Part shown: piece by piece, positions 9,469-29,075 of the stretch
Layout of the letters: every line of letters starts with the position of its first letter
Numbering within the stretch: position 1 is the stretch's first letter
Assembly: GCA_045577175.1 (NCBI GenBank)
Contig: JAZNHT010000017.1
Location: 18,686-82,685 of the forward strand
Origin: Eubacteriales bacterium
GTDB lineage: Bacteria; Bacillota; Clostridia; Oscillospirales; CAG-272
DNA length: 64,000 bases
Direction: 5' to 3'
Notes under the pieces: model-generated
What the model saw: the letters and a program-made list of their open reading frames with translations, nothing else
What the model was told of the DNA's origin: nothing
Databases searched by the model: none
Translations under genes and position numbers: made by a program

Positions 9469-10582
9469 GTGTTTCAAGAATCTCAAGCCCCCTGTCCTTC
9501 ATTGCGAGCAGCTGTCTGTAGCGGAATCCCTCGGGAATACGTCTCTGTGCGCGCACCGTTTTGCCGCTTTCTCCGAGCATTTTGACCGCGCGCGTCAGTG
9601 CGACCGCATCGGTATCTTCATCATAGAGAAGCAGAATGTCCGCATCAAAGCCGCGCTCGGGCGTGTTGTATCTTTCAAGCAGATCGAGATAGACCGCGAA
9701 GCCGATCGCACCGCCCGATTTGCCCATTTTTGTGAGCAGATTGTCGTACCGACCGCCTGCAAGCACCGCGTCGGGAATCCCCTCAATGAATCCGCTCAGG
9801 ATGATGCCGTTGTAGTACGACATATCGTTGACGGTGGAGAAATCCAGATTCACGTGCTCCGCATATCCTGCGGCATCCAGAACGGCGTGAACCGCTTCCA
9901 GCTCGTCAAGGGCATCGTTCTCCGCTTTGCCCATGCTGATCGCGCGGAGCTTGCCGATTGCCTCGGCAAACGGACCGTACAGCGTAGCCGCCGTCGTCAG
10001 CCGTGCACACGCATCCTCACCGATTCCGGCATCCTTACAGACGGCGGCGATCCCGTGCGCGTTTTTCTCACGGATGCATCCGATCAGTGCATCGCGCACG
10101 TCGCCCTCTGCACCGATTTCGTCGAGAAGGGCGGAGAGGAAGCCCATATGCGATATGTCGAGAATGTAATTTTCGCCGATTGTGGCAAGGCTCTGCACCG
10201 CGAGCAGGATGACCTCGCCCGTCTGATACAGATCGATTTCGCCGATGCACTCCAGACCGACCTGCATGATTTCGGAGATTTCGCGGCTGTCCTTCGACTC
10301 GCGGTAGACGTTTTCGGTGTAATACACCTTTTTCGTTTCCGCGCCGTCCCGTGCGTTTTTGACAATCGAGAGCGTAACGTCCGGACGGAGTGCCATCAGC
10401 CGTCCGCCGTCGGCGGTGAAGGTGATGATGCTGTCGCCGCGGAGAAAGCTCTTGTTCTTCGCGTACAGATCGTACTCCTCGAATTTGCTCATTTTGAAGC
10501 GGGCGTAGCCGTATCGGCTGTAGAGATCTCTGAGGGCAAAAACGGCACCCTCGCTGCCCAGACTCTCTTTCGTAATATCCAT
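9461..10582 (-). CDS. hisZ: ATP phosphoribosyltransferase regulatory subunit (HisRS paralog)
   Basis: HisRS-like catalytic core without an anticodon-binding domain. Overlaps hisG by 8 nt. The start MDITKES was chosen because the upstream ATG lies 5' of the predicted promoter -10. Confidence 0.8.
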   Translation of the reverse strand: MDITKESLGSEGAVFALRDLYSRYGYARFKMSKFEEYDLYAKNKSFLRGDSIITFTADGGRLMALRPDVTLSIVKNARDGAETKKVYYTENVYRESKDSREISEIMQVGLECIGEIDLYQTGEVILLAVQSLATIGENYILDISHMGFLSALLDEIGAEGDVRDALIGCIREKNAHGIAAVCKDAGIGEDACARLTTAATLYGPFAEAIGKLRAISMGKAENDALDELEAVHAVLDAAGYAEHVNLDFSTVNDMSYYNGIILSGFIEGIPDAVLAGGRYDNLLTKMGKSGGAIGFAVYLDLLERYNTPERGFDADILLLYDEDTDAVALTRAVKMLGESGKTVRAQRRIPEGFRYRQLLAMKDRGLEILETHD

Positions 10583-10624
10583 ATCGTAAACCTCGGTGGA
10601 ATGGGATTTTTTACTCTGCGGTAT

Positions 10625-10653
10625 AGTATAGCACACTTTAACGCTTTAGTCAA
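10625..10653 (-). promoter_or_regulatory. sigma-70-like promoter for the his operon
   Basis: On the minus strand: TTGACT, a 17-nt spacer, then TATACT, about 40 nt upstream of the hisZ start. Confidence 0.5.
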
Positions 10654-10689
10654 GTAAAGCGATAAAGTTTTTTGAGAATTTTTGCGAAA

Positions 10690-11241
10690 TTATTCAACAA
10701 ATCCCTTGAGCTTGACTGTGCGGGGTGTATGACGGACGGCAGGGAGGAATTTTTCGAGAATATCCGCCGTTCTGATTTTCAGACTGCTCGTGTTTTTGCA
10801 CGGATGGCAGCAGAGGTATTCGTCCTTCAGAATATCCTCGTCAATGATAAGCTGTACGCGCATTTCCTTGTCGTATGCAAGCCCGAGCACAGTCACCGAT
10901 CCGGGCGTGACGCCGAGGAGGGACTGCATATGCTCCTCGTCCGCAAAGGAGAGGCGCGTTGAGCCGATCTGGTGGGAGAGCTCCTTCGTTTTGAACGGCT
11001 TCTCGCCCGGCATAAGGAGCAGATAAAAGCAGGAGCCGTTGCTGTTTCTGAGAAAAAGATTTTTGCACATCGGCGTACCGAACGATTCGTCGATTGCGGC
11101 GCACGCTTCGATTGTGAAAGCCGCCTCGTGATCGACGCGGTCGTATTCGATGCCGAGGGAGTCGAGGAGGGTGTACGTTTCGCACTCGTGGGCGTCTCTA
11201 AATTCGTCGTGCGGATTGCCGTGATGGATTTCGTATGACAT
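10690..11241 (-). CDS. YbaK/ProX-type aminoacyl-tRNA deacylase domain protein
   Basis: KNLFLRN...GSCFYLLLMPGEK...LGVTPGSVTVLGL matches the YbaK/prolyl-tRNA-synthetase-associated domain pattern. Confidence 0.65.
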   Translation of the reverse strand: MSYEIHHGNPHDEFRDAHECETYTLLDSLGIEYDRVDHEAAFTIEACAAIDESFGTPMCKNLFLRNSNGSCFYLLLMPGEKPFKTKELSHQIGSTRLSFADEEHMQSLLGVTPGSVTVLGLAYDKEMRVQLIIDEDILKDEYLCCHPCKNTSSLKIRTADILEKFLPAVRHTPRTVKLKGFVE

Positions 11242-11440
11242 GGTTGTATATCCGTTTCTTTCATTTTAATATAATACGTCATTATATCACAGCGGTGGAA
11301 AAAAAGCAAGGTGCAAACGCGGTTTTCGGCAATCTTTTGTCCGAACAGGGAAAATTTACAAGTCATGCGGTGTTTGTTCATGTCCCGGTTGCAGTTTGGA
11401 GGTATAATAACAATACGAATTTCACAATTGGAGAACAGTA

Positions 11441-11851
11441 ATGTCAAACTGGAAACAAAAGATTGCCTCATTCCTGTACGGGCGGTACGGCTCCGATCAG
11501 CTTGGGCGCGCGCTTCTTTTTCTGTATCTCGTTTTTTATATCGTGTATGTCTTCACGCATATGTGGGTGTTTATCGTTTTATCGAATGTCGCTCTGATTT
11601 TCATGGTGTTTCGTATGTTTTCGCGCAAGTATGCCCGCCGCCGTCGGGAGAACGAATGGTTTCTCAAGCTGTGGAATCCGATCGTTTCATGGGTGAAGCT
11701 GCAATTTCACCGTGTACGTGACTGCCGCAGTTCCGTCTACCGCAAATGTCCGCACTGCAAGGCTGTTTTGAAGCTCCCTCGCCGTCGCGGAAGTCATACT
11801 GTCCGCTGTCCGCGCTGTTCCGAACGGTTTGATACGCGGGTTCTGTTTTAA
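11441..11851 (+). CDS. membrane protein with a C-terminal zinc ribbon (hypothetical)
   Basis: Two hydrophobic helices followed by CPHCK...CPRCSERF (Cx2C-x16-Cx2C). GGAGAA RBS. Confidence 0.5.
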   Translation: MSNWKQKIASFLYGRYGSDQLGRALLFLYLVFYIVYVFTHMWVFIVLSNVALIFMVFRMFSRKYARRRRENEWFLKLWNPIVSWVKLQFHRVRDCRSSVYRKCPHCKAVLKLPRRRGSHTVRCPRCSERFDTRVLF

Positions 11852-11900
11852 TTTGTCGAACTTATTTTTCATAAAAACGCAAAAAAATGTTCATATTTTA

Positions 11901-11929
11901 TTGACAAATCTCTGCGGATGCGGTATAAT
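11901..11929 (+). promoter_or_regulatory. consensus sigma-70 promoter
   Basis: TTGACA, an exact 17-nt spacer, then TATAAT, about 40 nt upstream of the 52-aa ORF. Confidence 0.7.
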
Positions 11930-11969
11930 AGTACAGGATCAATGGGAGAAAGGGAAGGAAGCGACACCG

Positions 11970-12128
11970 ATGCAGCTTTTGAATACATATTTAGCCGCCG
12001 TTATAGCCGGAATGGTGCCGCTGGCACCGATGACCGGTGACATCAACGTGATGATAATTGTTGCCGTAATTCTTATTGCCGCGTTTTTGATTTTCATTCT
12101 TCTGAAGGGAAATCGCCGCGGTCGGTAA
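11970..12128 (+). CDS. 52-aa small membrane peptide with a sorting-signal-like architecture
   Basis: MQLLNTYLAAVIAGMVPLAPMTGDINVMIIVAVILIAAFLIFILLKGNRRGR. It has its own consensus promoter and an AGGGAAGGA RBS, and a terminator follows directly. Confidence 0.45.
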   Translation: MQLLNTYLAAVIAGMVPLAPMTGDINVMIIVAVILIAAFLIFILLKGNRRGR

Positions 12129-12147
12129 CTGATTTTGAATAAATATG

Positions 12148-12180
12148 CCGGACTGTCTTTCGGGACTGTCCGGCTTTTTG
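12148..12180. terminator. bidirectional intrinsic terminator
   Basis: CCGGACTGTC-tttcgg-GACTGTCCGG (9 of 10 bp) followed by CTTTTTG. It sits between the small ORF on the plus strand and the minus-strand nucleotidyltransferase stop at 12184. Confidence 0.7.
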
Positions 12181-12183
12181 TAT

Positions 12184-13422
12184 CTACAGACCGACTTCTC
12201 TGAGCAGATTGCGGACGGTTTCGACCGTGTCTCTGTCGAGATTTCGGAGTGCGCGCAGCGTCCGTGCAGAGCGTTTGCGCGTTTTGGGGCTGAACAGACC
12301 GCACCAGCGCGCGATTTGGCAAAACGGTGTGAGGATGCGGTGCTTTTCCAAAACGGGATACTTCAGCTTCAGCTCTGCATACGGCATAAAAATACGCCCC
12401 AGAATGTATTGCCCCCTGCCTCCTGCGCGTTGCTGACGGACGGTTTCGAAATTCGACCGAGTGCCGTACGCGCCTCCCGACAGAATGAATTTCTGCATAT
12501 CTTCCGTAAGTGCAGTGTGCGCGTCCGAGCCGAACCACACACCGATCAGCGAGCAGACACAGCCGTAGAAGCGCAGAAGCCCGCTTTCTTTCAGCAAAGA
12601 CGTGAGCAGTGCGCGATCAGGCGAGGTGCCTTTTTCGAGAAGATACAGATCGATCAGCGGACGGATGCCGCATCCGCCGCTTTGAAAGTGATATGCCATG
12701 TGCGCGATCACGTGAAAGAGCAGATACGTGTCCGACTGCCGATACGTCATTCCGCCTTCCGTCATCGGAGCGCTGAATTTCCATACGCGACGCAGCAGGC
12801 GGTCGGGTGCGGACATATTTTCGCAGATGCTGAAATGGAGTTCAATCGGCAGACCGCACGGGGCAAAGAGCGCGGTGTCGTGATAATTCCGTTTTTCGGA
12901 TGCGCGATAGTGCAGGCGGTTTGTCAGCACCTGTGCCGCCTGTTCCAGATCCGATTCGTGCACAAGGATGTCAATATCACAGCTCGTGCGCATCCACGGC
13001 GCGGGATAGTATGCGCGGATTACTGCGCCCTTCAGCGGGATATGCGGGATTGCGGCATCCGTAAGTACGCGGCAGATTTCCTCAAGCTCGTAGCGGAACT
13101 GCTCGTGCCTGTATGCCGCTTCCGCAAGTGCTTGGCGAAAGAGCTCGGATGCGCCGCCGCTTTTCATAAGATGCGCGCGGGAGATCGCCTGTGCGGTGAT
13201 GTGCGCAAGATCGTGATTGCTTGCAAGGGAGTACAGCATACGCAAGTCCTCCTCCGTTACGGATTGCGGAAGAGAGCAGTCTTCCTCTGTACCGCAAATC
13301 TGCGATCTGAGGAGTGAAAACAGAATATCTTCGGTGTTCACGGATGTTTTTTTACCTCGCTTGGGATACGGATCGTCGTTTTCGGTGAGATTCAGTATAG
13401 CATATCTTGTGCAAAAAAGCAA
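12184..13422 (-). CDS. nucleotidyltransferase family protein (PF14907/NTP_transf_5-like)
   Basis: IPLKGAVIRAYYP...RTSCDIDILVHESDLEQA is the DxD nucleotidyltransferase signature of the 'uncharacterised nucleotidyltransferase' family. It is transcribed divergently from the giant gene. Confidence 0.7.
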   Translation of the reverse strand: MLFCTRYAILNLTENDDPYPKRGKKTSVNTEDILFSLLRSQICGTEEDCSLPQSVTEEDLRMLYSLASNHDLAHITAQAISRAHLMKSGGASELFRQALAEAAYRHEQFRYELEEICRVLTDAAIPHIPLKGAVIRAYYPAPWMRTSCDIDILVHESDLEQAAQVLTNRLHYRASEKRNYHDTALFAPCGLPIELHFSICENMSAPDRLLRRVWKFSAPMTEGGMTYRQSDTYLLFHVIAHMAYHFQSGGCGIRPLIDLYLLEKGTSPDRALLTSLLKESGLLRFYGCVCSLIGVWFGSDAHTALTEDMQKFILSGGAYGTRSNFETVRQQRAGGRGQYILGRIFMPYAELKLKYPVLEKHRILTPFCQIARWCGLFSPKTRKRSARTLRALRNLDRDTVETVRNLLREVGL

Positions 13423-13445
13423 TACGCGCTCGGAATTTACTTCAT

Positions 13446-13471
13446 TTTTTCGTTAATCAACTAACGAAAAA
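13446..13471. promoter_or_regulatory. perfect 10-bp inverted repeat (candidate operator)
   Basis: TTTTTCGTTA-atcaac-TAACGAAAAA, 3 nt upstream of the -35 box of the giant-gene promoter and within the divergent intergenic region. Confidence 0.45.
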
Positions 13472-13474
13472 TCG

Positions 13475-13503
13475 TTGACACGGCGGTTAACATGTGCTAT
13501 ACT
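13475..13503 (+). promoter_or_regulatory. sigma-70 promoter for the giant surface-protein operon
   Basis: TTGACA, a 17-nt spacer, then TATACT, about 110 nt upstream of ATG 13613. Confidence 0.6.
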
Positions 13504-13612
13504 ATAAACTGGGAATGGAGTCCGCTAAGTCGGGTTCGTTCTACATTATGGGTTGCATGGATATGTGAAACGTCGTGTCCGTGCGCTCGGACTTTCAGAA
13601 AGGAAAGACCCA

Positions 13613-16600
13613 ATGAAAAACACAGCAAAACGTTTATTTGGAATAGCATTGGTGTTTATCATGCTGTTCAGCATGTGGCTTGTCCCCACTGCTTTTGCAG
13701 AGGACAGCCTCAATGCGTGGGACGGTACGTCGGATACCTCGTGGTATAACGATACCGATACCGAATTTAGTTTGTCTACGGCAGAACAGCTTGCAGGCTT
13801 TGCAGAGCTTGTGAATGCCGGTAATACCTTCGGGGGGAAGACAGTTAAGCTGACAGCTGACATCAACCTCGGCGGTAAGACATGGACACCGATTGCATCC
13901 TTTGCAGGAAATTTTGTGGGAAACAACTGTACGATCAGTAATTTCCACATGGATGCAACGGAAAAAAGCAGCGGCTTTTTCGGCACTATTGCCGCAAGCA
14001 ACGGTCTGGAGGACGTAAAGGTCAAGGATCTTGTCCTCTCCGACGTGACTGCTGCTGTCGGCGCGTACCGCTTCGGTACACTCGCTAACAGTGTAAAAGG
14101 CGTTGTTCATAACGTTACTGTAAAGAATGTCACCGTTACTACCACCCATACAAGCGCTTGGGTTGGCGGTATGTGTGCCTTTATGGATTGGCCTTGGATG
14201 ACGAACTGCACGGTTGAAAATCTGACGGTGAATGCTGCCGCAGGCGCGGATTTGATTGGCGGATTTGCTTGCATTCTTCAGAAAAACAGCAACCATGTGT
14301 TTGACAACCTCGATGTCAACGGATTCAAGGTAACCGTAATCGATACGGATGCATCCGGATGCGGTGTCGGCGGCTTTGTTGCACAGACACAGCGCGGTTG
14401 GGAGTACCCCAAGGTTATAAACAGTGATGTTACCGGTATTGATGTTACAGCAGTCGGTCTTGTGGACGTCGGCGGCTTTATCGCATGGCCCGGTGCTCAC
14501 ACTACCGCTGAAAACTGCACTGCGCAGGGTAAGATCGACGTTACCGGCGTGACCTCTGCGGATTGCTTCGCAGGCGGCTTCTTCGGCAACCTCGGTTGGA
14601 ATGCAGACCTCGGTAAGATGGGCCACGTTGTCACCGGCTGCTCCGCAGATGTCGATATTATCACGAATGTGGCAGCTGCCGGCGGTTTTGTCGGCTCGGC
14701 TACCAACAGCAATAATGCAAGTATGTATGCAACTTTCACCGACTGCTCAGCAAGCGGTGATATTACCTCAAACGGTACTGCACCTGTCGGCGGCTTCGCA
14801 GGTGATGCGGATCGCGGTACATATAGTAACTGCTCTGCAACCGGCACCGTTGTCGGTGCGAACGGTGTAAGCGGCGGATTTATCGGTTATGTCAGTGACG
14901 TTACTCCGTCATATGATTCCCGTTATCCTGCCGGAACGCGCGACTATGCTGTCGAGTGCGTAACGTTTACCGACTGTACGGAAACTTCCGAGCTTCCGTT
15001 TTTCGGTGATGTGGATACAGCAAAACCGGCGGATGAGGTGGAAATCAGAAATTACGTCGCACAGGTCGGTGAGACTAAGTACGAAACCATCGCAGAGGCT
15101 ATCGCAAATGCTGCCGACGGTGACACTGTCGTAATTCTTCCCGGCGAATACGGCGCATTCAACATCAGCAACAAGAACATCACTATCAAGGGTACTGTTG
15201 GCGAGAACGGTGAGCTGCTTACCACCATCAAGGGTGGCAACCCCGCGATCACCGGTCACAATTTCAACGGTACTATTGCGGATTTGAAGATTGTGGATGC
15301 ATTTAAGGTTATGTATGCTGAACCTGCCGGAAACGTAACTGTTGATAATGTTTACGTAACAGGTGCTACATACGGCTTCCACCTTGTAGCTTATTCGACA
15401 GACTTGACGTGGACAATCCAAAACAGTTACATGGATTTGAGCTGGGCGAACTCCTTTGGCGTATATGATGGCGGCGATGCTGCTATCGTAGTTACGGGTA
15501 ATACTTTTGAGGCGACAAACCCGTATTATGAGGGCGGCTTTGTTTACCATGTAAATACATTCTTGCCGAATGTTACTGTTACAGAAAACATTTTTGGTGA
15601 AAATGCAAAGATTTTGATTCGGGACGCAGTAACAGATACCTCCAATATTAGAATTTTTGCGAACTATCATGCTGACGGCGTTGAGAATGCATTTGATGAA
15701 GACTCTTTAGAGGTCGCTATTGAATCTTACTACAGATCCGTTGATGAAAACGGCAATCTTACAGATCTTGTGACCGTTCCCACCGGCTCCAACTCTCCTG
15801 CATATACAAAGGAAGTTGACGGCTATGTTCGTATTTGGGGTGAGGGCAGCGGTAACGCTTCCGAAAGTTTCGTTCTGAAACTTTACTCCGAAGAAACTCT
15901 CATCGCTACCACCACGCTCAACAACGTTGGCGGAATCATCGACGGTGACGTTAACGTAACCTGGAACTTCTTCTATCCCAGCTCCAATGACGAATATTGG
16001 ACTACCACATGGGAAGAAGGGCATCCGAAAACAACTGCACAGCCCACCAAGGTTGAGCTTTACATCGACGGCACTCTCGTGGCTACCACAGATGCTCAGA
16101 TGAACGCTCCCGATAACCTCAATCCCGTTGTTTGGACCGAGCTCGGCGGTGTGGAAGCCGAAGTCATCGAAATTCGCACTTGGGATGATCTCAAGGCACT
16201 TGATGCACGCGTTGAAGGCGGTGATATGCTTGAGGGCGTGATCGTTAAGCTGATGAACGACATCGACCTGTACGAAATGGGTACAGACGGTGAGGCCGTA
16301 AGTTTTAACCCCATCGGTGCCAATAAGGCTTACTTCAAGGGTACATTTGACGGTCAGGGATACACCATCAGGAATATGTACCAGAGCGGTTGGGCGCTTG
16401 GCTATGACTGGTACAATTATGGTACCATCGGTCTGTTTGCATACCTTTGGGATGCAACGGTCAAGAATCTGACTATCGAAAATGCAGAATGCCTCGTTGA
16501 AGGCGGTAATGTAGCCGGTATTGCAGGTTGCGCGTGGGGCGACTGTACCTTCGAAAATATTACAATCAAAAATTCCACATTTGCAACCTACAACAACCGT

Positions 16601-19600
16601 GCAGCCGGTATCGTTGGTTACACCGGCGGCGAAGGCACCATGACCTTCAAAAATATTACGGTTGATGAGGATACTGTAATTGCCGCTCTGTGGGGCTCCT
16701 ACGATTGTACTCTCGGCGGCGTGGTCGGTTCCACACATAGCAACAATGTAACAAAATACGTCTTTGAAGATGTAACCGTTGCTTGTAAGCTTGATTGCTA
16801 TAATGACGTAACCGCATCTTATAAGTGGTATTCCTACAGAATGTGCGGTATGCTCATCGGCAGCATGAAAGCATTGCAGGAGGGAACAACCGACGTAGAT
16901 CCCCGCGATACCGTTACTCTGAAGAATGTCAATATTACCATCGGCGAATGGGCAAACCAGACATACATCTGGGACGACTCTCTCAGCAAGGGTTGTCAGC
17001 GCGTTGAAGCCGGCTATAGCTATGGCGGTGTGGATGTAAGCCAGTATCCCGATGCTGAGGTCGAAACCATCGGCTTTAACACCATTATCGGCGGTCCTCA
17101 GTCGCAGAGCTCCGGCTATTACGGCTCTGACATCACCAAACTTGAGGAACTCGAAGGCTTTGAAGAACAGGTAGCTGAATTGGATGTTACTGACATCGCA
17201 CTTGAGATCAGAAGCCGTGTCGCACAGGTTGGCGAGACGTACTTCACCAGCCTCCAGACTGCAATTGACAGCGCAAACGGCGAGACCGTAATTCTCATCG
17301 CTAACGCGACCGAGAACATCACGATTGCAGAAGGTGCAACTGTCGTAATCGACCTCGGCGGAAAGACGCTGAACGGTTATATTGCTCCTTGCTCGCCTGC
17401 TTCTCTGACGATTTCGAACGGTTCTGTCAAGAATACAGATTCTTCTGTCAGTGCGCTTGAGATCAACGCAGGCACGCTGACTCTCACAAATGTCAACATT
17501 GATTCCGCACGTCATGCAGTCCGCATCGACGGTGCGGTTACCGCAACCATCGACGGCGGTACCTACCGTTCTGCGATCGGTGAAGGTACCGGTACGTACC
17601 ATGCAGTAAATATCTCCGGCGATGCTTATGTTACCGTTAAGAACGGTACATTCGTGGGTCCGAAGGGCACTACTGCTGACAGCGGTTCTGCAATTTGCAC
17701 AAAAGCTGTAGTTATCATTGAAAACGGTTCATTCAGCGGCGGTAAGAACAGTACCCTGGTTACAAAAGACAGCGGTTCTGTTGTAATCACCGGCGGCACC
17801 TTCGATCAGGATCCCACTGCTTACGTGGCTGACGGCTACAAAGCTGTAGAGGCAGACGGTGTTTATACGGTTGTAATGGTTGTCTATGTCGCGGAGATGA
17901 ACGGAACGAAGTATGAAACTCTTGCCGAAGCCGTAGCTGCTGCCGGTGAGAATGACACTATCACTCTTATTAAAGACGTAGCTTTGACTGATACGCTGAC
18001 GATTCCTGCGGACAAGAAGATCATCCTTGACCTCGCAGGCTATACGGTCAGCCAGACGAAGGAACAGACCGCAGGCTATCAGATGATTCTCATTGACGGT
18101 ACGCTTACCGTGGAGGACTCTGTCGGCGGCGGTAAGATCAGCTATACCGACTCCGGCAACGGCGGCGAGTACATTTCCGATACGATTTACAACAGAGGCG
18201 TGCTCGTAATCAACGGCGGTACGATCGAAAACCTCAGCTCTGCTACGGTTGCATCGAACGGTTATCCGCACGCTGTGGATACGTATTCCGGTATCCGTGA
18301 TACTTCCGTTACGATCAACGGCGGCACGGTGTACTGCGCGGAATATTCCGCAATCCGTATGTTCTGCGTGAGCGAAACCTATAAGAACGATCTGACCATC
18401 ACAGGCGGTACGATCAAGGGTGCTGTGGATGCACAGAACGGTTCTAAGGATAAGGCTTGTGTCGGTGCGCTGAATATCACCGGCGGTACGTTTGAGACCA
18501 CTGCCAATGCAAACAACATCCGTATTGCAGACTGGCACTACTACGGCAGTACGGCTACCATCAGCGGTATCGAGGTTTCCGTTTCCGGCGGTAACTTCAA
18601 CGGCGGTATCTACAACAATATCGGTACGGTTGAAAAGTTCATCACCGGCGGTACGTTCACGGTTGACCCTTCGGCTTATGTGGTGTTCGGCTATGAAGCA
18701 ACGGAGAGCGAAGGCGTTTACGGCGTTGCTGCGTCCGCTATCATCAAAATCAACAATGCCGATGATCTCCTCGCATTTGCGGCTCTTGCCAATGCAGGCA
18801 ACACCTTCTCCGGCAAGACTGTCGAGCTTACGGACGACATCGATCTTGGCGGTATGACATGGACTCCCATTGCCAAGTTTGCGGGTAAGTTCTACGGTAA
18901 TGATTATACCATCAGCAACTTCGTGATCGATGCAACGGCTGCACACGGCGGTTTCTTCAACGTTCTGGAATGGGCAGTGATTGATGATCTGAATCTGGCT
19001 GACGTTACCGCAACTGTAGGCGCTTACCGTTTCGGTACGCTTGCCCGCAGCATCAATCAGACTTGTATCGGTGATGTTACAGTTAAAGACGTAACTGTTA
19101 CTACTACCAATTCTGAGGCTTTTGTGGCAGGCTTGTTCAGCCACGGTACCGTAAACTCCAATATGACGGTAAATAACTGCACGGTTGAGAATTTCACCGT
19201 TAATGCACAGAACGGTGCAATGCTGATCGGCGGTATTACGACCTTTGTTCAGAAAAACGGCACTGAGGCTGAAGACACAAACGTAATGGAGAACCTTCAT
19301 GTTAAGAACATCAAGGTTACCGTTAATGATACCGACGGTTATGCAGGCGTAGGCGGACTTATCGGTCAGACGCAGACTGTATGGCAGAATCCTCATTTCA
19401 AGAATTGCTCTGTAACCGGTCTTGATGTTACCGCAACAGGCACGGTTGACGTGGGCGGATTCATGTGCTATCCCGGCTCGTGGACCTATGCAACCGACTG
19501 CACAACCGAAGGTAAGATCGACGTTTCCGGCGTAACCTCTGCAAATAATTATGCAGGTGGTTTCTTCGGTGACTACGGTTGGGGTGATAACGTCGGCAAG

Positions 19601-20566
19601 GGTGACCACAAGATCACCAACTGTACGGCAGACGTCGATATTATCACCAAGTATGCGTCGGCAGGCGGCTTTGTCGGCTCCGGCACGAACTCCGAAGGTA
19701 GAAACAAAAACATTACCTTCACCGATTGTGAAGCGAAGGGCACTGTGACTCTCGCCGAGGGCGGCACTGCCAATATCGGCGGCTTCGCAGGCGAGGCGGA
19801 TCGCGGTATCTATATCGACTGTACCGCGGCACAGGAACCCTTCATCGGCGGTACTCTGAATGATTCGATCGAAATTCATAATTACGTCGCACAGATCGGT
19901 GACGTATCATACGACTCTCTCGATGAGGCACTTGCGGCCGCATCGAACGGACAGACGGTTAAACTGGTTGCCGATACGGAAACGGCGGCACTTGTGGTCA
20001 GCACCGGCATTACGGTTGATCTTGCAGGATACGATCTGACGGCAGGCTACGTCGTCACGTTCAAGGGTGCTGCCATCATCGACAGCAACAGTCAGATTGC
20101 CGATGCCGAGCTCGGCGCGCTCATCGCACCGCAGGATCTCGTCCGTCTGGACGGTCAGAACGCGAACTACTGTCCCGTATGGAACGGTACGGCGTACAAC
20201 TTCGGTTATGTATCCGTAAATGTAAGACAGTACGGTGTCAATGAGTCCGGTGCAGTTTACTATAACTTCCGTTATGACTTTACAGGTCAGAGAAGCGGTC
20301 TTGAGTCATTCTTTGCAAACGATGAGAGCACACTCGTTAAGGTGAAACTCACCTGGACAACGGTAAACGGAAATATCAGCGAGCAGAGCTTTACCATGCC
20401 GAGAGAGAAGGCACAGAGTATGGCAGAAATTCAGGATAAATTTGTTTCCCTTACCGTTACCGGTCTGAGCGGTATTCAGGATCTCAGCATTTGTGTAATT
20501 ATCGAATCCACTGCTACGCAGGTAGCGGTTGAAGGCGGCACTGTGACGCTCAGTGTTGCAGGTTAA
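13613..20566 (+). CDS. giant secreted protein (about 2317 aa) with GLUG-like repeat modules and beta-helix-like regions
   Basis: Signal peptide MKNTAKRLFGIALVFIMLFSMWLVPTAFA|ED. Recurrent GGF[AVI]G, GGLIG and GGFFG motifs. An N-terminal block of about 420 aa is duplicated near the C-terminus. There are four VAQVGET.Y.TL..A-type module onsets. No LPxTG motif or SLH domain. Confidence 0.8.
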   Translation: MKNTAKRLFGIALVFIMLFSMWLVPTAFAEDSLNAWDGTSDTSWYNDTDTEFSLSTAEQLAGFAELVNAGNTFGGKTVKLTADINLGGKTWTPIASFAGNFVGNNCTISNFHMDATEKSSGFFGTIAASNGLEDVKVKDLVLSDVTAAVGAYRFGTLANSVKGVVHNVTVKNVTVTTTHTSAWVGGMCAFMDWPWMTNCTVENLTVNAAAGADLIGGFACILQKNSNHVFDNLDVNGFKVTVIDTDASGCGVGGFVAQTQRGWEYPKVINSDVTGIDVTAVGLVDVGGFIAWPGAHTTAENCTAQGKIDVTGVTSADCFAGGFFGNLGWNADLGKMGHVVTGCSADVDIITNVAAAGGFVGSATNSNNASMYATFTDCSASGDITSNGTAPVGGFAGDADRGTYSNCSATGTVVGANGVSGGFIGYVSDVTPSYDSRYPAGTRDYAVECVTFTDCTETSELPFFGDVDTAKPADEVEIRNYVAQVGETKYETIAEAIANAADGDTVVILPGEYGAFNISNKNITIKGTVGENGELLTTIKGGNPAITGHNFNGTIADLKIVDAFKVMYAEPAGNVTVDNVYVTGATYGFHLVAYSTDLTWTIQNSYMDLSWANSFGVYDGGDAAIVVTGNTFEATNPYYEGGFVYHVNTFLPNVTVTENIFGENAKILIRDAVTDTSNIRIFANYHADGVENAFDEDSLEVAIESYYRSVDENGNLTDLVTVPTGSNSPAYTKEVDGYVRIWGEGSGNASESFVLKLYSEETLIATTTLNNVGGIIDGDVNVTWNFFYPSSNDEYWTTTWEEGHPKTTAQPTKVELYIDGTLVATTDAQMNAPDNLNPVVWTELGGVEAEVIEIRTWDDLKALDARVEGGDMLEGVIVKLMNDIDLYEMGTDGEAVSFNPIGANKAYFKGTFDGQGYTIRNMYQSGWALGYDWYNYGTIGLFAYLWDATVKNLTIENAECLVEGGNVAGIAGCAWGDCTFENITIKNSTFATYNNRAAGIVGYTGGEGTMTFKNITVDEDTVIAALWGSYDCTLGGVVGSTHSNNVTKYVFEDVTVACKLDCYNDVTASYKWYSYRMCGMLIGSMKALQEGTTDVDPRDTVTLKNVNITIGEWANQTYIWDDSLSKGCQRVEAGYSYGGVDVSQYPDAEVETIGFNTIIGGPQSQSSGYYGSDITKLEELEGFEEQVAELDVTDIALEIRSRVAQVGETYFTSLQTAIDSANGETVILIANATENITIAEGATVVIDLGGKTLNGYIAPCSPASLTISNGSVKNTDSSVSALEINAGTLTLTNVNIDSARHAVRIDGAVTATIDGGTYRSAIGEGTGTYHAVNISGDAYVTVKNGTFVGPKGTTADSGSAICTKAVVIIENGSFSGGKNSTLVTKDSGSVVITGGTFDQDPTAYVADGYKAVEADGVYTVVMVVYVAEMNGTKYETLAEAVAAAGENDTITLIKDVALTDTLTIPADKKIILDLAGYTVSQTKEQTAGYQMILIDGTLTVEDSVGGGKISYTDSGNGGEYISDTIYNRGVLVINGGTIENLSSATVASNGYPHAVDTYSGIRDTSVTINGGTVYCAEYSAIRMFCVSETYKNDLTITGGTIKGAVDAQNGSKDKACVGALNITGGTFETTANANNIRIADWHYYGSTATISGIEVSVSGGNFNGGIYNNIGTVEKFITGGTFTVDPSAYVVFGYEATESEGVYGVAASAIIKINNADDLLAFAALANAGNTFSGKTVELTDDIDLGGMTWTPIAKFAGKFYGNDYTISNFVIDATAAHGGFFNVLEWAVIDDLNLADVTATVGAYRFGTLARSINQTCIGDVTVKDVTVTTTNSEAFVAGLFSHGTVNSNMTVNNCTVENFTVNAQNGAMLIGGITTFVQKNGTEAEDTNVMENLHVKNIKVTVNDTDGYAGVGGLIGQTQTVWQNPHFKNCSVTGLDVTATGTVDVGGFMCYPGSWTYATDCTTEGKIDVSGVTSANNYAGGFFGDYGWGDNVGKGDHKITNCTADVDIITKYASAGGFVGSGTNSEGRNKNITFTDCEAKGTVTLAEGGTANIGGFAGEADRGIYIDCTAAQEPFIGGTLNDSIEIHNYVAQIGDVSYDSLDEALAAASNGQTVKLVADTETAALVVSTGITVDLAGYDLTAGYVVTFKGAAIIDSNSQIADAELGALIAPQDLVRLDGQNANYCPVWNGTAYNFGYVSVNVRQYGVNESGAVYYNFRYDFTGQRSGLESFFANDESTLVKVKLTWTTVNGNISEQSFTMPREKAQSMAEIQDKFVSLTVTGLSGIQDLSICVIIESTATQVAVEGGTVTLSVAG

Positions 20567-20589
20567 TTTAAGAACAGGAGAATAGAATC

Positions 20590-20715
20590 ATGAAGAAACT
20601 TTATCAGAAACCCGAAGCAGAGATCATCGGACTGCGTATCCGTGAGCCGATCGCCGATCAGGCAGGTGTCGGAAGCTGGGGCTCCGGCATCGATGAGGAT
20701 ATTGTAGACCCGTGA
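20590..20715 (+). CDS. unannotated 41-aa ORF, a candidate leader-bearing substrate peptide for the downstream kinase/PqqD pair
   Basis: MKKLYQKPEAEIIGLRIREPIADQAGVGSWGSGIDEDIVDP. AGGAGA RBS 7 nt upstream. It begins 23 nt after the giant-gene stop, and its TGA overlaps the kinase GTG as GTGA. Y5-x-x-P8-x-A-x-x-x-G14 resembles the lasso-leader RRE-binding motif YxxPxLxxxG. Confidence 0.55.
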   Translation: MKKLYQKPEAEIIGLRIREPIADQAGVGSWGSGIDEDIVDP

Positions 20716-21419
20716 TCTGTAAAATCGCAGATCTTACCGTGGATGTTCCGTCGGCGGGGGGGCTTTCCCCCCGCTTTACGGAATATCTGTACGAGTTTCG
20801 CGGGCAGACGGACATCCGAATCGATGCAGCGCAGTACCGTCACGCAAAATATCCGAACGCATCGGCAGAGCTTATCGCCTACATTGAATCCGGTATGCAG
20901 TTTCATCGGGAGATTCTGCGCTTTGACGGGATGATGCTTCATTCCTCCGCCGTTGCATTGGGCGGGTGGGCGTATCTCTTTTCAGGTCCTTGCGGCGAGG
21001 GAAAATCCACGCACGCAAAGCTATGGAAGGAGGTGTTCGGAAGTGAGGCGGTCATCATAAATGACGACAAGCCTACACTCCGCCGTCTGGATGGGAGATG
21101 GTTTGCCTACGGCACGCCGTGGTGCGGCAAGGATGGGATTAACGTGAATCGGAAAGTGCCGCTCGGCGGCATCTGCTTTTTGAAGCAGGGTACGGAAACC
21201 CGTATCCGCCGTCTTGAAAATCCCGAATCTACCGCCAACGTGATTCTGCAAACCATGCACAGATTCAAGGATGAAGAGAATCTGACCAGAATGCTGTCTC
21301 ACGTTGACAAGCTGGTGCGTGAGATTCCGATGTTTGAATTGGAAAATCAGCCCGTACCCGATGCCGCACGTCTCAGCTTTGAAACGATGCACCGTGCTTT
21401 GAAGGAGGCTTCACTGTGA
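20712..21419 (+). CDS. HprK-related P-loop kinase (HPr kinase C-terminal-domain-like)
   Basis: GTG start. Walker A LFSGPCGEGKSTHAKLW resembles the HprK/P GDSGVGKSE motif. 235 aa, i.e. kinase-domain size only. Confidence 0.65.
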   Translation: MICKIADLTVDVPSAGGLSPRFTEYLYEFRGQTDIRIDAAQYRHAKYPNASAELIAYIESGMQFHREILRFDGMMLHSSAVALGGWAYLFSGPCGEGKSTHAKLWKEVFGSEAVIINDDKPTLRRLDGRWFAYGTPWCGKDGINVNRKVPLGGICFLKQGTETRIRRLENPESTANVILQTMHRFKDEENLTRMLSHVDKLVREIPMFELENQPVPDAARLSFETMHRALKEASL

Positions 21420-21679
21420 AAATCAAAAATGGATTTGTGCTCCGCGAGGTTGCCGAGCATTGGTTTGTTCTGCCCGTCGGGCAGGCATCGGTCGATTTCA
21501 ACGGAATGATTTCTTTGAATGAGTCCGGTGTGCTCCTCTGGCAGACGCTTGAGGCAGGCGGAGATCGGGAAGCAATGTGCGAGGCTTTGCTTGCAGAATA
21601 TGAGGTGGAGCGCGCGCAGGCGCTTTCGGATGTGGATGCGTTCATCAAGGTATTGACGGACGCAGGCTGTATCGAATAA
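21416..21679 (+). CDS. PqqD-family protein (RiPP recognition element-like peptide chaperone)
   Basis: 87 aa, ...ISLNESGVLLWQTLEAGGDREAMCEALLAEYEVERAQALSDVDAFIKVLTDAGCI is the PqqD/RRE pattern. GTG start with AAGGAGG RBS. GTGA overlap with the kinase stop. Confidence 0.7.
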   Translation: MKIKNGFVLREVAEHWFVLPVGQASVDFNGMISLNESGVLLWQTLEAGGDREAMCEALLAEYEVERAQALSDVDAFIKVLTDAGCIE

Positions 21680-21762
21680 CAACAGATTTCAAACGCCGTG
21701 CGGGACGTGCAGATTCTGCAATACCAGCGCGGCGTTATCTGTCCGTTTTATGGAGGTATATT

Positions 21763-22725
21763 GTGAAAAAAAGATTACTTGCTTTTCTCGGGGCATTGCT
21801 TCTGCTTTTTTCCGCCGTCGCGGTACACGCTGCCGGATTTACAGCAAAGCAGCTTCGCATAGCTGACGCACTTCATCATGTCGGTCTGTTTCTCGGAACA
21901 GGCTCGGGGTATGAGTTGAACAGACAGCTAACCCGTACCGAGGGCATGGTGCTTCTTGTCCGCATGCTCGGACAGGAGCAGAATGTGCAAAGAGGCGGAT
22001 ACGAATGTCCGTTTACCGATGTCGCTGAGTGGGCGGTGAATTATGTCGGCTACGCATATGAGAACGGTATTACGCGCGGCTATTCGGACACGGAGTTCGG
22101 TGCCGAAGATCCGATGACGGATTATATGTTTCTGACGCTTACACTCCGTGCACTTGGCTATAACGATAAAGGTGCAAATACGGAATTTGTCTGGGACGAT
22201 CCGTATGCACTGGCACAGAAAATCGGACTGATTTCTTCGGGAAAATCGGATAAGGATTTTATTCGTGCCGATGCTGTGGAGGTTTTTTGGAACGCATTTA
22301 AGCAGAACGACTATGAGTTGGCGCATAAGCTCATCCGATGGGGCGTGTTTACCGAAAAGCAGCTCAGTGAAGCGATTGAAATTTACACCTACGGCAGGAT
22401 CGTGACGGAAGAAACCACACGGGACGCGGATGGGGACACAGATGATGCAACCCCCGAAGTAACCGCACCGAATACTCCGCCTGCACCGTCCATACCTCAG
22501 CAAACGGAAACGACAACGCTTCCGCCCGTGCCGAGCGGTTCGATCTCTTATGAGGAATATATAGCCATGAGCGGTGAGGAGCAGGAGGCGTACTTTATGC
22601 AGTTCTCCGATCCGATGGCGTTCTTTGTATGGCTGGAGACCGCTAAAGCAGAGTACGATGCCAAAAACCCGAGCATTGACATTGGTGACGATGGCAATAT
22701 TGATCTCGGCGGACTTGGAAGCTGA
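21763..22725 (+). CDS. secreted protein with SLH (S-layer homology)-like repeats
   Basis: Signal peptide MKKRLLAFLGALLLLFSAVAVHA. FTDVAEWAVNYVGYAYENGITRGYSDTEFG fits the SLH consensus. A Pro/Thr-rich linker follows. Confidence 0.6.
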   Translation: MKKRLLAFLGALLLLFSAVAVHAAGFTAKQLRIADALHHVGLFLGTGSGYELNRQLTRTEGMVLLVRMLGQEQNVQRGGYECPFTDVAEWAVNYVGYAYENGITRGYSDTEFGAEDPMTDYMFLTLTLRALGYNDKGANTEFVWDDPYALAQKIGLISSGKSDKDFIRADAVEVFWNAFKQNDYELAHKLIRWGVFTEKQLSEAIEIYTYGRIVTEETTRDADGDTDDATPEVTAPNTPPAPSIPQQTETTTLPPVPSGSISYEEYIAMSGEEQEAYFMQFSDPMAFFVWLETAKAEYDAKNPSIDIGDDGNIDLGGLGS

Positions 22726-23221
22726 TACTGCCACGGTGGAAACGGCAAAAATACAAGAGGTGTCGGTGACCGCTGTTTTTCCCGTGTTGGAGGAGCTTCT
22801 TTCCGTCGGGACGAGCGTGGAGATCACGGTCAGCGGAAACAGTATGTATCCGATGCTGAAGCATCAGATCAGCCGTGTACGTCTTGCTCCCGTCGGAGCT
22901 TTGCGGATAGGCGATCTTCCGCTTTACCGTAGGGAGAACGGCGCATATGTTCTGCACCGTATCGTCGGACGGAAGGAAGGCGGCTATGTCTGCTGCGGAG
23001 ACAATCAGCGCGAGCTTGAATTTGGCATCCGTCGGGAGCAGATTGTCGCTGTAGCGACCGATTATTACCGCAATGACCGTTGGCGATCCTGTGCATCATG
23101 GTCGTACAGGATGTATGCACGCGTGTGGATTGCGATTCGTCCGTGTCGCCACGCCTTTCTGTCGGTCGGTCGGTGGGTGTTTCGGCTTCTCAGGCGGGCG
23201 AAAAATCACTTCGAAAAGTAA
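22691..23221 (+). CDS. type I signal peptidase (S26) family protein; start uncertain
   Basis: VSGNSMYPML...GDLPLYRR...YVLHRIVG matches the SPase I boxes (SGxSMxPTL, GD, KRxIG). The track ORF begins at 22574 inside the SLH gene. Candidate starts are ATG 22691 or GTG near 22734. Confidence 0.55.
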   Translation: MAILISADLEADTATVETAKIQEVSVTAVFPVLEELLSVGTSVEITVSGNSMYPMLKHQISRVRLAPVGALRIGDLPLYRRENGAYVLHRIVGRKEGGYVCCGDNQRELEFGIRREQIVAVATDYYRNDRWRSCASWSYRMYARVWIAIRPCRHAFLSVGRWVFRLLRRAKNHFEK

Positions 23222-23256
23222 AAGAACCCTTGCTGCGCTATCGCAGCAAGGGTTTG

Positions 23257-24177
23257 TCATTTCATGATTTCAGCCGTCAGACGGCAGAAATCGAGGGGGG
23301 ATAGCTTCTCGCCGCGGATGTCCGTGCGGATACCGAGGGAGGCAAGCGCCGCCTCCGTTTTTTCTTTCGGAAACAGAGAAGAAAGCGCATTTGGGAGTGC
23401 CTTGCGCCGCATGACAAATGCCGTATCGATTACCGCAGTCAGCTTGTCAAAATACGGAGCGAACCCGTCACCCGTCGGGCAGTCGGGATACAGATCACGG
23501 AGCCCATTCGGATATGTGTCAATCTGTAAAACGGCGGATTCCACCTTCGGAACAGGATAGAAATTGCCTGCCGATACGGTAAAAGCACGCCTTGCGCACC
23601 CATGCAGAGCGAGCAGAACGGAGGTCGCGCTGTAATCGCGGTCGCCTGCCTCGGCGCACACGCGGTCAGCAAATTCGCGCTGTACGAGCAGCGTAATGCG
23701 CGTGATAGGCGATGTTCCGTCAGGGCGGTACGCATCCAGCAGAGCAGTGAGAATCGGCGTCGTGATGTAATACGGCAGATTTGCGCAGACGTGCACCGAT
23801 CCTCCGTCTGCGATCTCGCCGATCAGCGCGCGTGCGTCCGTTTTCATGAAATCGGCGTGGATGACGCGCACGTTTTCGCAGTCGGAAAGCGTCTCGGCGA
23901 GGACGGGGATCAGTCCGTCATCGATCTCCACCGCCGTGACGGCAGGATACCGTGCGGCAAGCTCGCGCGTCAAAGCCCCGATGCCGGGACCGATTTCGAG
24001 CACGCGCACGCTGTCCGCGTTTTCTCGCGCAAATACAGGCTCGGTATATGCCGAGGTGTCCGCAATTTCCTCGGGGATGGCGGCATTCACAAGAAAATTC
24101 TGCCCGAACGATTTGCGCGGCGCGATGCCGTGCTTTTCCATAAGGGCGCGGATTTCCGTAAGATTACATAAATTCAT
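23257..24177 (-). CDS. rsmA: 16S rRNA (adenine1518/1519-N6)-dimethyltransferase
   Basis: FGQNFL, VLEIGPGIGALT (SAM motif), NLPYYITTPI. Confidence 0.85.
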   Translation of the reverse strand: MNLCNLTEIRALMEKHGIAPRKSFGQNFLVNAAIPEEIADTSAYTEPVFARENADSVRVLEIGPGIGALTRELAARYPAVTAVEIDDGLIPVLAETLSDCENVRVIHADFMKTDARALIGEIADGGSVHVCANLPYYITTPILTALLDAYRPDGTSPITRITLLVQREFADRVCAEAGDRDYSATSVLLALHGCARRAFTVSAGNFYPVPKVESAVLQIDTYPNGLRDLYPDCPTGDGFAPYFDKLTAVIDTAFVMRRKALPNALSSLFPKEKTEAALASLGIRTDIRGEKLSPLDFCRLTAEIMK

Positions 24178-27326: not shown

Positions 27327-29075
27327 TTACTGTGCGAACTGGCTGTTGTACAGATTTGCGTAAAATCCGTCTTTGGCGAGCAGCTCGCCGTGCCGTCCCT
27401 GCTCGACGATGTTGCCGTCACGCATCACGAGGATTACATCCGCCTCACGGATTGTGGAGAGACGGTGCGCCACGATGAAGCTCGTGCGTCCTTTCATCAT
27501 GCGTGCAAACGCCTCCTGAATCTTTGCTTCGGTGCGCGTGTCGATCGAGGAGGTCGCCTCGTCCAGAATCAGAATCGGCGGCAGGCAGAGCATCACGCGT
27601 GTGATACAGAGCAGCTGCTTTTGTCCCGCGGACAGGCTGCCTCCGTCCTCGCCGATTACGGTATCGTATCCGTCGGGCAGACGGCGGATGAAGCTGTGCG
27701 CGTGTGCCGCTTTCGCCGCATCGATCATTTCTTCGTCGGTTGCGTCGGGACGTCCCATTTTGATGTTCTCGCGGATCGTGCCCGATTTCAGCCACGTGTC
27801 CTGGAGTACCATACCGATGTTCTGCCTCAGCGAGGCGCGTGTGAGAGCGCGGATGTCCGTGCCGTCGGCAAGGATGGCACCGGCATCTACGTCGTAAAAA
27901 CGCATCAGCAGATTGATGACCGTCGTTTTTCCGCATCCGGTCGGTCCGACAATGGCGACGCGCTGTCCCGGGCGCACGTGCAGATTGAAATCGCGGATCA
28001 GCGGTCGCTCGGGTACGTAGGAGAACGATACCTCCTTTACGTCAATTTCTCCTGAGGCTTCCGTTAAAACGGCGGCGTCCGCTTGGTCGGGCGTCTCCGT
28101 CGGCGCTTCGATCAGCTCAAACAGACGGGAGGCACACGCCAGCGCATTTTGCAGCTCCGTGATGACGCCCGAGATTTCGTTGAAAGGCTTCGCGTACTGC
28201 GTTGCGTAGCTGAGAAAGCACGTCAGTCCGCCGACCGTGATCGCACCCAAAAGGGCGGCAAACGCGCCCGAAAGCGCAACGGCGGCGTAGATCAGGTTGT
28301 TCAGCACTCTTGTGCTCGGATTGACCAGGGAAGAGAAGAACACCGCCTTGAGGGAGCATTTTTCGAGCCTATCCCCAATCTCATCGAATTGCAGAAGTAC
28401 GTCGTCCTCCTTTGAAAATGCCTGCACGACCTTCTGCCCGGAGAGCATTTCGTCAATCAGCGCGGTCTGCTCACCGCGCACCTCCGACTGCGCACGGAAG
28501 AAACGGTACGTTTTTGTTGCGATAAACCGTGCCAGAAGGAGCGACATCGGCGTCAGAACAACGACCACCGCCGTGATGCCCACGTGGATTGTCAGCATGA
28601 ATACAAGCGTGCCGAGGATCGTTACAACGCCGGTGAACAGCTGTGTGAAGCCCATCAGAAGCCCGTCTGCCAGCTGATCCGCGTCGGTGATGACACGGCT
28701 GACCGTCGCGCCTGTCGGATGCGTGTCGGTGTAGGAAAGCGGCAGCTTCTGAATCCGTGAGAACGCTTCGTTTCTGAGATCGCGTACCACGCCGTAGGTA
28801 ATGCGGTTGTTTATCATGTTCATGATCCACTGCGAAAGTGCCGCGCCGGCAACAATCACGATAATCTTCAAAAGAAGCGGTCGGATCACGTCAAAGCGCA
28901 CCGCCCCCGCCTCGGTGATTGCGTCGATTGCCTCACCGATGAGGATCGGGACGTAGAGCGACAGTGCCACGGTTACGGTGGCAAGCAGCAGGGAGAAAAT
29001 CAGAAAAACGCGGTATTTTTTGATGTGAGACAGCACCTTTCCGAGCGTGCCGCGCGAGGCTTTTTCTTTTGCCAT
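27327..29075 (-). CDS. ABC transporter ATP-binding/permease protein (type I exporter half-transporter)
   Basis: Six-helix TMD followed by an NBD with Walker A GPTGCGKTT and LSAGQKQ. Start MAKEKAS. ATGA overlap with the upstream partner. Confidence 0.8.
   Translation of the reverse strand: MAKEKASRGTLGKVLSHIKKYRVFLIFSLLLATVTVALSLYVPILIGEAIDAITEAGAVRFDVIRPLLLKIIVIVAGAALSQWIMNMINNRITYGVVRDLRNEAFSRIQKLPLSYTDTHPTGATVSRVITDADQLADGLLMGFTQLFTGVVTILGTLVFMLTIHVGITAVVVVLTPMSLLLARFIATKTYRFFRAQSEVRGEQTALIDEMLSGQKVVQAFSKEDDVLLQFDEIGDRLEKCSLKAVFFSSLVNPSTRVLNNLIYAAVALSGAFAALLGAITVGGLTCFLSYATQYAKPFNEISGVITELQNALACASRLFELIEAPTETPDQADAAVLTEASGEIDVKEVSFSYVPERPLIRDFNLHVRPGQRVAIVGPTGCGKTTVINLLMRFYDVDAGAILADGTDIRALTRASLRQNIGMVLQDTWLKSGTIRENIKMGRPDATDEEMIDAAKAAHAHSFIRRLPDGYDTVIGEDGGSLSAGQKQLLCITRVMLCLPPILILDEATSSIDTRTEAKIQEAFARMMKGRTSFIVAHRLSTIREADVILVMRDGNIVEQGRHGELLAKDGFYANLYNSQFAQ

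Follow-up and report, generated by a model that had tools for sequence, protein, structure and literature searches.

A probable linear polyphosphorylated peptide gene cluster of Clostridia and its association with giant secreted proteins sharing a C-terminal domain

The window analysed here is a stretch of 64,000 nucleotides from a Eubacteriales bacterium (assembly GCA_045577175.1, contig JAZNHT010000017.1, positions 18,686 to 82,685). It contains a compact gene module composed of a PF14907 nucleotidyltransferase, a giant secreted protein, a 41-residue open reading frame (ORF), an HprK-fold kinase, a small PqqD protein, a secreted protein called X and a SipW-like peptidase (Table 1). An earlier note, written from the sequence of positions 12184-21679, had described the nucleotidyltransferase gene, the divergent gap beside it, the giant gene, the small ORF, the kinase and PqqD, and all of them are found where it had placed them; X and the peptidase follow PqqD beyond that piece and are further members of the module. 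Judged from sequence comparisons, the cassette very probably represents a clostridial subfamily of the linear polyphosphorylated peptide (LPP) clusters, a group of ribosomally synthesised and post-translationally modified peptide (RiPP) pathways, with the 41-residue ORF encoding the substrate. The peptide gene is regularly preceded, in this window and in its relatives, by the gene of a large secreted protein with one and the same, usually C-terminal, domain (CTD), and this association is, with great confidence, real.

Table 1. Features of the module in the window
Feature	Coordinates	Strand	Basis and remarks
PF14907 (NTP_transf_5) nucleotidyltransferase, LppN-like	12184..13422	-	Pfam E 6.4e-42, 144 bits
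Divergent intergenic region, 190 bp	13423..13612		Between the PF14907 gene and the giant gene
Giant secreted protein, 2317 aa	13613 (ATG)..20566	+	Translation; signal peptide, GLUG/beta-helix-type repeats
CTD of the giant protein, about 230 aa	19874..20563	+	blastp of C-termini; hidden Markov model (HMM) i-E 3.8e-65
Putative precursor peptide (LppA-like), 41 aa	20590..20715	+	MKKLYQKPEAEIIGLRIREPIA (leader with YxxP) and DQAGVGSWGSGIDEDIVDP (acidic Ser/Gly core), separated at an inferred cleavage point
HprK-fold P-loop Ser kinase (LppK-like), 235 aa	20712..21419	+	AlphaFold2 fold match; GTG start
Discrete PqqD/RRE (RiPP recognition element) leader-binding protein (LppB-like), 87 aa	21416..21679	+	PF05402 E 2.2e-17
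Stem-loop in the PqqD-X gap	21682..21742	+	-34.3 kcal/mol, z -4.3; 0/200 shuffled sequences equally stable
Protein X, 320 aa	21763..22725	+	Signal peptide, weak SLH (E 3.5e-7), Pro/Thr-rich linker, C-terminal domain of about 65 aa
Soluble SipW/archaeal-type signal-peptidase-I-like leader peptidase (LppS-like), 161 aa	22736..23221	+	TIGR02228 27 bits, below cutoff
Bidirectional terminator hairpin closing the module	23224..23255		-25.5 kcal/mol, z -6.1; shared with the convergent ksgA

The 41-residue ORF is a real gene, as seen from the AGGAG ribosome-binding site that precedes it, from the 4-nt GTGA overlaps at the peptide/kinase junction (peptide stop, kinase GTG start) and at the kinase/PqqD junction, from the conservation of its leader and from the codon changes therein. 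The leader MKKxYxKPExExIx[F/L]xxx[E/D]x[I/L][T/A/M] is common to 55 small ORFs of related loci, five of which were found next to CTD proteins in the reverse search described below. Between the window and L001, the relative at 84% identity, leader codons have undergone solely synonymous or conservative changes, and the leader is, on this codon comparison, under purifying selection. The window peptide carries YQKP at residues 5-8, in agreement with the [Y/W]xxP leader criterion of LPPs; the cut is expected near E-x-I-[A/T], at about residue 22. The cores of the 55 peptides are hypervariable, with 25% Asp/Glu, 3% Lys/Arg and 17% Gly; all of them contain at least one Ser, and an aromatic residue lies near the C-terminus in 43 of the 55. 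The paeninodin lasso-peptide model was matched weakly by two of 39 peptides.

LPPs were defined by Popov et al. (Nat Commun 2026; PMC13381572) as "linear polyphosphorylated peptides". The published cluster, lppA-K-B-S-D-N of Paenibacillus alginolyticus, encodes a YxxP-leader precursor, an HprK-like kinase, a discrete RRE, a soluble SipW-like Ser/His/Asp peptidase, an MsbA-like exporter and an NTP-transferase of unknown action (PMC13381572). Experiments have established that LppK polyphosphorylates one core Ser of the precursor, and that the leader is cut by LppS together with LppB, LppS requiring the RRE (PMC13381572). The final product and the biological role of LPPs are explicitly unknown; the Bacilli clusters lie within capsule loci, and a role in biofilms has been speculated (PMC13381572). 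The supplement of that study lists, without analysis, a peptidase/RRE pair from Ruminococcus (cluster 9 of the sequence similarity network), and its main text mentions neither Clostridia nor surface proteins (PMC13381572).

The enzymes of the window can be set beside these parts one by one. The AlphaFold2 model of the kinase, built from 20 homologs, has a predicted local distance difference test (pLDDT) score of 89.9, and its top 15 matches in the PDB are HprK/P structures, followed by PEP carboxykinases; a sequence-only profile search of the PDB had matched solely the P-loops of ABC transporters, so that the HprK/P relation needed the fold search to appear. The Walker A motif GPCGxGKSTH is invariant among homologs, which carry the precomputed Pfam assignment PF27840 'ScmC', and the genes are intact in more than 1800 kinase clusters, counted at 90% identity. 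The PF14907 and PqqD memberships proposed in the earlier note were recovered with clear Pfam scores; the kinase failed the TIGR04352 model and is HprK-related by its fold. The best NCBIfam matches of the PqqD protein are lasso-peptide PqqD chaperones, all under their cutoffs; it is 24% identical to LppB (pairwise E 6e-6) and 32% identical to the Ruminococcus RRE of the PMC13381572 supplement, and phmmer against the PDB gave E-values of 0.004 for TbiB1, 0.016 for TfuB1, 0.25 for PbaB1 and 0.41 for LppB. The peptidase has the SGNSMYP, LHRI and GDN boxes of the archaeal/ER-type signal peptidase I. S36, H74 and D89 show no substitution in any of its 54 homologs, and no segment hydrophobic enough for a membrane helix was found over these same 54 sequences. 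It is 29% identical to LppS (E 1e-11), and peptidase and PqqD together are 32-35% identical to the Ruminococcus pair. The start of the PF14907 gene is uncertain, either TTG 13422 (the mechanical call) or GTG 13341, and its homologs in related loci lie divergently upstream or downstream of the cassette.

A comparison with 86 loci gathered around kinase homologs, from metagenome-assembled genomes of gut and rumen Oscillospiraceae, Faecousia and other Clostridia, places these genes in a recognisable order. Related loci are arranged A-K-B-(X)-S-D-N, MsbA-type exporter included, as in the published lppAKBSDN, and in many relatives the ABC exporter lies directly 3' of the peptidase and is itself followed by PF14907. 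No lasso cyclase or B2 protease was found among the genes at 5228-32254 of the window, nor among the called genes of the related loci L001, L003 and L005. The assignment to the LPP type relies on this absence, on the gene set shared with LPP clusters (precursor, kinase, PqqD RRE, SipW-like peptidase and PF14907, without a macrolactam cyclase) and on the published gene order seen in relatives. Since lasso cyclase and B2 protease are missing, the product should be linear. By homology with the LPP and paeninodin systems, the 41-residue peptide would be the substrate: the PqqD protein would bind its YxxP leader, the HprK-fold kinase would phosphorylate, and probably polyphosphorylate, a Ser of the acidic core, the PF14907 enzyme may add a further group, such as a sugar, to the phosphate, and the soluble Ser/His/Asp peptidase would cut off the leader with the assistance of PqqD. 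Leader binding, Ser (poly)phosphorylation and RRE-assisted leader removal are thus steps supported by homology; for the possible extension, a precedent is PsmN, which adds a hexose to phosphoserine in pseudomycoidin. The clusters compared here differ from the published ones by their host, Clostridia (Oscillospiraceae-type gut and rumen genomes) instead of Bacilli, by the extra secreted protein X between B and S, and by the tight link to giant secreted proteins with a common domain, on which PMC13381572 is silent. The triad plus peptide has been known since 2026; of the clostridial subfamily with its acidic cores, its X and its link to giant proteins through a new domain, no earlier description was found in the literature searched, where PMC13381572 is the only paper on LPPs.

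The giant protein has a clear Sec-type signal peptide, no recognised wall anchor, and Pfam matches limited to weak Glug and Peptidase_M26_N. A module of about 450 residues of GLUG type near its N-terminus (residues 60-500 approximately) recurs near residues 1650-2090. Its C-terminal part drew attention by comparison with three loci whose kinases are 84%, 61% and 59% identical to that of the window and which present a protein of 3018 to more than 5345 residues, a small ORF, and then kinase, PqqD, X and peptidase. The large proteins of these loci and of the window are otherwise dissimilar, yet blastp detects the same domain of about 230 residues at their extreme C-terminus. The first 60 or so residues of the CTD (VAxxG..Y.tL.eAl..A..G.TV.L) occur three more times within the giant protein of the window. 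The CTD matches no Pfam, PDB or PHROG family, and its profile search against the PDB yielded chance-level matches only.

The link between this domain and the peptide holds in both directions. Of the non-redundant loci, 37 possess a family peptide with 1.5 kb or more of sequence 5' of it, and in 34 of these an HMM of the CTD matched the protein encoded directly before the peptide; in the related loci that lack a peptide, the same HMM found no CTD at the corresponding place. The carriers upstream of the peptide are otherwise unrelated, from 400 to more than 5300 residues long, with the CTD usually C-terminal and, in a few proteins, N-terminal or duplicated. The gap between the domain-protein gene and the peptide gene is 6-30 nt (23 nt in the window). 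A full HMMER search retrieved the CTD in 1644 cluster representatives at E<=1e-3, 498 of them at E<=1e-10; these proteins measure 250-7230 residues, most of them with the domain at the very C-terminus. When the contigs of CTD proteins were in turn inspected, a family peptide was found directly downstream in five of six informative cases, with the kinase too in three; the sixth carrier is a prophage tail protein. Peptide-core similarity follows CTD similarity (r 0.62; partial Mantel r 0.52 given the kinase) more closely than it follows the kinase (partial r 0.29), a co-variation that fits a co-inherited or co-evolving pair. Comparative genomics thus shows that, in this clade, the peptide gene and the gene of the large CTD protein are a co-travelling two-gene unit. 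The connection with a giant surface protein, which the earlier note had singled out as unusual, is in this way borne out and conserved: it had reckoned with the chance that homologous loci would never contain a surface-protein gene, and the opposite was found, such genes recurring in relatives. Two arrangements may be mentioned apart. In L014:2015-5028, two tandem units, each consisting of a domain protein of about 420-430 residues and a nearly identical 39-residue peptide, precede a single kinase gene, and in L038 two peptide copies follow one 3015-residue protein.

Protein X is the other secreted member of the module. Depending on the locus, its N-terminus consists of a signal peptide, a lipobox, or a signal peptide with SLH, followed by a Pro/Thr/Ser-rich linker, and X is on these features predicted to be extracytoplasmic and surface-anchored. 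Its C-terminal domain (22540-22725; HMM E 4e-29), with the consensus TYEEYxAMSxxEQQAFFESF...FFxWYNxAKAxYExENPxIEIGGDGxIDLGD, is confined to the loci L001-L067, which form the clade where the CTD proteins occur as well; comparative genomics shows that X was recruited into the module there. Pfam and PDB searches gave no credible relative for the X domain, the PDB profile matches being at chance level. HMG_box was matched below threshold in nine of 26 X domains (best E 6.5e-5), and HMG-D in the PDB at E 0.003 over 24 residues; with such sub-threshold scores the resemblance is probably a coincidence of helix pattern, and the candidate was rejected.

The prophage carrier gives a hint about what the CTD may do. 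The protein P0158 (L088:4796-6376, 526 residues) contains two CTD copies, with no peptide or kinase nearby. Its gene follows tape-measure, Dit and minor-tail genes and stands just before holin and endolysin, in a module that also includes a resolvase. The slot between the tail genes and holin/endolysin of a siphophage is the usual place of the receptor-binding protein. Because P0158 occupies this position, the CTD is suggested to bind something on the cell surface. Its mostly terminal location in proteins that are otherwise unrelated points the same way.

The divergent region carries, at 13475-13503, a TG-extended sigma-70 promoter close to the consensus (TTGACA-17-TATACT), which faces the giant gene. 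An Rfam scan of 11000-24000 returned no family match, and therefore no c-di-GMP or other riboswitch appears to lie ahead of that gene. The earlier note had supposed a single transcript running from the giant gene into the cassette. A candidate terminator at the giant/peptide junction was discarded: shuffled sequences fold as well as its hairpin (z -0.69), which three related loci do not conserve; co-transcription of the giant gene with peptide, kinase and PqqD is plausible. The stem-loop in the PqqD-X gap has analogous hairpins of different sequence at the same junction of three relatives (L001:10982-11026, L005:10971-11022 and L017:10984-11060), and the one of L005 is followed by a U-rich tail. 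It is possibly an attenuator or terminator, and attenuation may split the module into two expression units, giant-peptide-kinase-PqqD and X-peptidase.

Around the module, a few further elements were observed. Between a YbaK-like gene and the cassette, an ORF of 136 residues (11441-11851, plus strand) combines two hydrophobic segments with a CxxC...CxxC motif resembling a zinc ribbon at its C-terminus, with no Pfam match. A hydrophobic 52-residue ORF at 11971-12129 (MQLLNTYLAAVIAGMVPLAPMTGDINVMIIVAVILIAAFLIFILLKGNRRGR) is driven by a sigma-70 promoter that matches the consensus perfectly (TTGACA-17-TATAAT, 11901-11929); the ORF is followed by a terminator-like hairpin at 12160-12173, just past the 3' end of the PF14907 gene. 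The G+C content is about 50-52% over the cassette and the giant gene vs 55-58% in the flanking his-operon and tRNA-synthetase regions (window 10000-22000), which could reflect horizontal acquisition or the composition bias of a repeat protein.

Taken together, an LPP-type cluster coupled to a giant surface protein is the best overall explanation of the locus, and a fairly probable one. How the coupling might work can be sketched. A phospho(glyco)peptide, anionic and exported, would serve the CTD as ligand or adaptor, either in free form or linked to a wall polymer, X may take part in the CTD-peptide binding, and the giant, otherwise anchorless protein would in consequence be retained or assembled at the cell surface. 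This role of the phosphopeptide in retaining the giant protein is put forward tentatively and is, in our judgement, on the doubtful side. The broader version, in which a polyphosphorylated RiPP would be the dedicated ligand or adaptor of an unrecognised surface-display system in gut Clostridia, with a CTD borrowed by phage tails and X as a co-binder, is decidedly speculative. It would have an analogy, and an analogy only, in the non-covalent anchoring modules SLH, CWB2, GW and choline-binding, since a terminal domain is found here too on diverse large secreted proteins and on a phage tail. The partner would likewise be anionic and phosphate-rich, here encoded beside the domain gene; the proposed ligand would differ in being a ribosomal phosphopeptide instead of a teichoic acid or a polysaccharide. 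The option of a modified peptide with a role at the cell surface, already raised in the earlier note, is viable.

Several observations weigh against the combined explanation. On the LPP side, the leader motif is Px6[F/L]x3[E/D]x[I/L][T/A/M], instead of the published Px9Fx[T/A] (YxxPxVLxHQxIxFETxxS, with the phospho-Ser at core position 3; PMC13381572). The present peptide family has no conserved Ser at +3 and does not conform to the published LPP motif, and its cores are strongly acidic whereas the published ones are basic or Gly/Asn-rich. The different motif spacing and the acidic cores therefore speak for a distinct, divergent subfamily. In the PDB search the RRE was no closer to LppB than to lasso B1 proteins. 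No exporter gene lies inside the module of the window, in which it departs from the LPP clusters. Two ABC exporters of 601 and 577 residues (ABC_membrane and ABC_tran) do occur 4-7 kb from the cassette, at 27327-30808 on the minus strand, and are about 25-30% identical to the cassette-linked exporters of relatives; their inclusion in the module is not supported, since ksgA, a class-II tRNA-synthetase gene and a LytR gene lie between and the orientation is opposite. As for the coupling, linkage alone could produce the co-variation of core and domain. The single-sequence AlphaFold2 model of the CTD has a pLDDT of 45.8, too poor for a fold search. INPHARED and IMG/VR contain no match for the CTD or P0158, and the phage case amounts to one contig.

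The main rival is that the peptide and the large protein are only co-regulated, an independent secreted phosphopeptide of biofilm-matrix, signalling or antagonistic function sharing an operon with giant adhesins, with no direct interaction between them. This explanation, which we consider rather unlikely, would agree with the location of Bacilli LPP clusters within capsule loci and the biofilm role speculated for them (PMC13381572), with the distant loci L065-L086, which keep K-B-S-D-N without a giant protein or X, and with a co-variation due to linkage. It accounts less easily for an association with one specific domain instead of with any surface protein, for the duplication of the pair as a unit in L014 and the short gaps within it, and for a link that holds from the peptide to the domain as well as from the domain to the peptide. 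Another possibility, one of two raised in the earlier note, is that the giant protein is itself the client, to which kinase and PF14907 enzyme would attach phosphate or nucleotide groups. Adjacency and the shared promoter region had made this attractive, and it now appears very improbable. The giant protein is Sec-exported while the enzymes have no export signals; PqqD recognises YxxP leaders, and the large proteins gave no match to the leader HMM, so that a leader within them or a peptide-giant fusion was rejected as well; and a dedicated peptide is present, which bears the conserved leader of lasso/LPP type and whose stop overlaps the kinase start, LppK likewise acting on a precursor peptide (PMC13381572). 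Because the giant protein is Sec-exported without such a leader, and because this dedicated substrate exists, the client is almost certainly the small peptide.

Two further readings concern the identity of the cassette. The name HPr-rel-A system, given in the earlier note after TIGRFAMs, does not suit it, and its identity with that system or with the SynChlorMet (Scm) cassette is highly improbable. Both known systems do pair an HprK-related P-loop kinase with a PqqD-family protein, TIGR04352, TIGR04249 and TIGR04248 are matched weakly, and kinase homologs bear the PF27840 'ScmC' label. The scores are far under the curated cutoffs, with 18.3 bits against 200 for TIGR04352 (HprK_rel_A), 26.2 against 125 for TIGR04249 (ScmC) and 19 against 100 for TIGR04248; the HPr-rel-A PqqD model, TIGR04353, is not among the matches at E<=0.01, and no radical-SAM ScmE/F genes were found among the neighbouring genes. 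The small peptide, the SipW-like peptidase and the giant-protein context set the module apart from both, and the LPP pathway fits better. The least credible reading, scarcely to be retained, is a decayed, non-functional lasso cluster from which cyclase and B2 protease have disappeared. It draws on a genuine kinship: the leader resembles those of paeninodin-type lasso peptides, lasso B1 proteins are the closest RREs of solved structure, and the paeninodin and pseudomycoidin clusters of Bacillota share with the window a YxxP-type leader, a PqqD (B1) chaperone, a PF14907-type nucleotidyltransferase and an HPr-kinase homolog, theirs phosphorylating a precursor Ser. The differences are the absence here of the lasso cyclase and of the B2 cysteine protease, and a phosphorylated Ser that need not be C-terminal. 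Decay is contradicted by the large number of intact kinase clusters, by the invariant catalytic residues, by the purifying selection that appears to act on the leader, by the presence of a dedicated alternative peptidase and by the fact that the cyclase-less LPP pathway is functional (PMC13381572).

An LPP-type cluster coupled to a giant surface protein being the preferred explanation, the question of the role of LPPs has now become concrete, with about 50 relatives that pair the precursor with huge secreted proteins sharing one domain. Two new protein domains, the CTD and the X domain, and a large new precursor family are defined along the way. If the link is physical, Gram-positive bacteria would have a new means of mounting giant adhesins, and RiPPs a new class of function; LPP RiPPs would then be structural components of the cell envelope, rather than antibiotics or signals.

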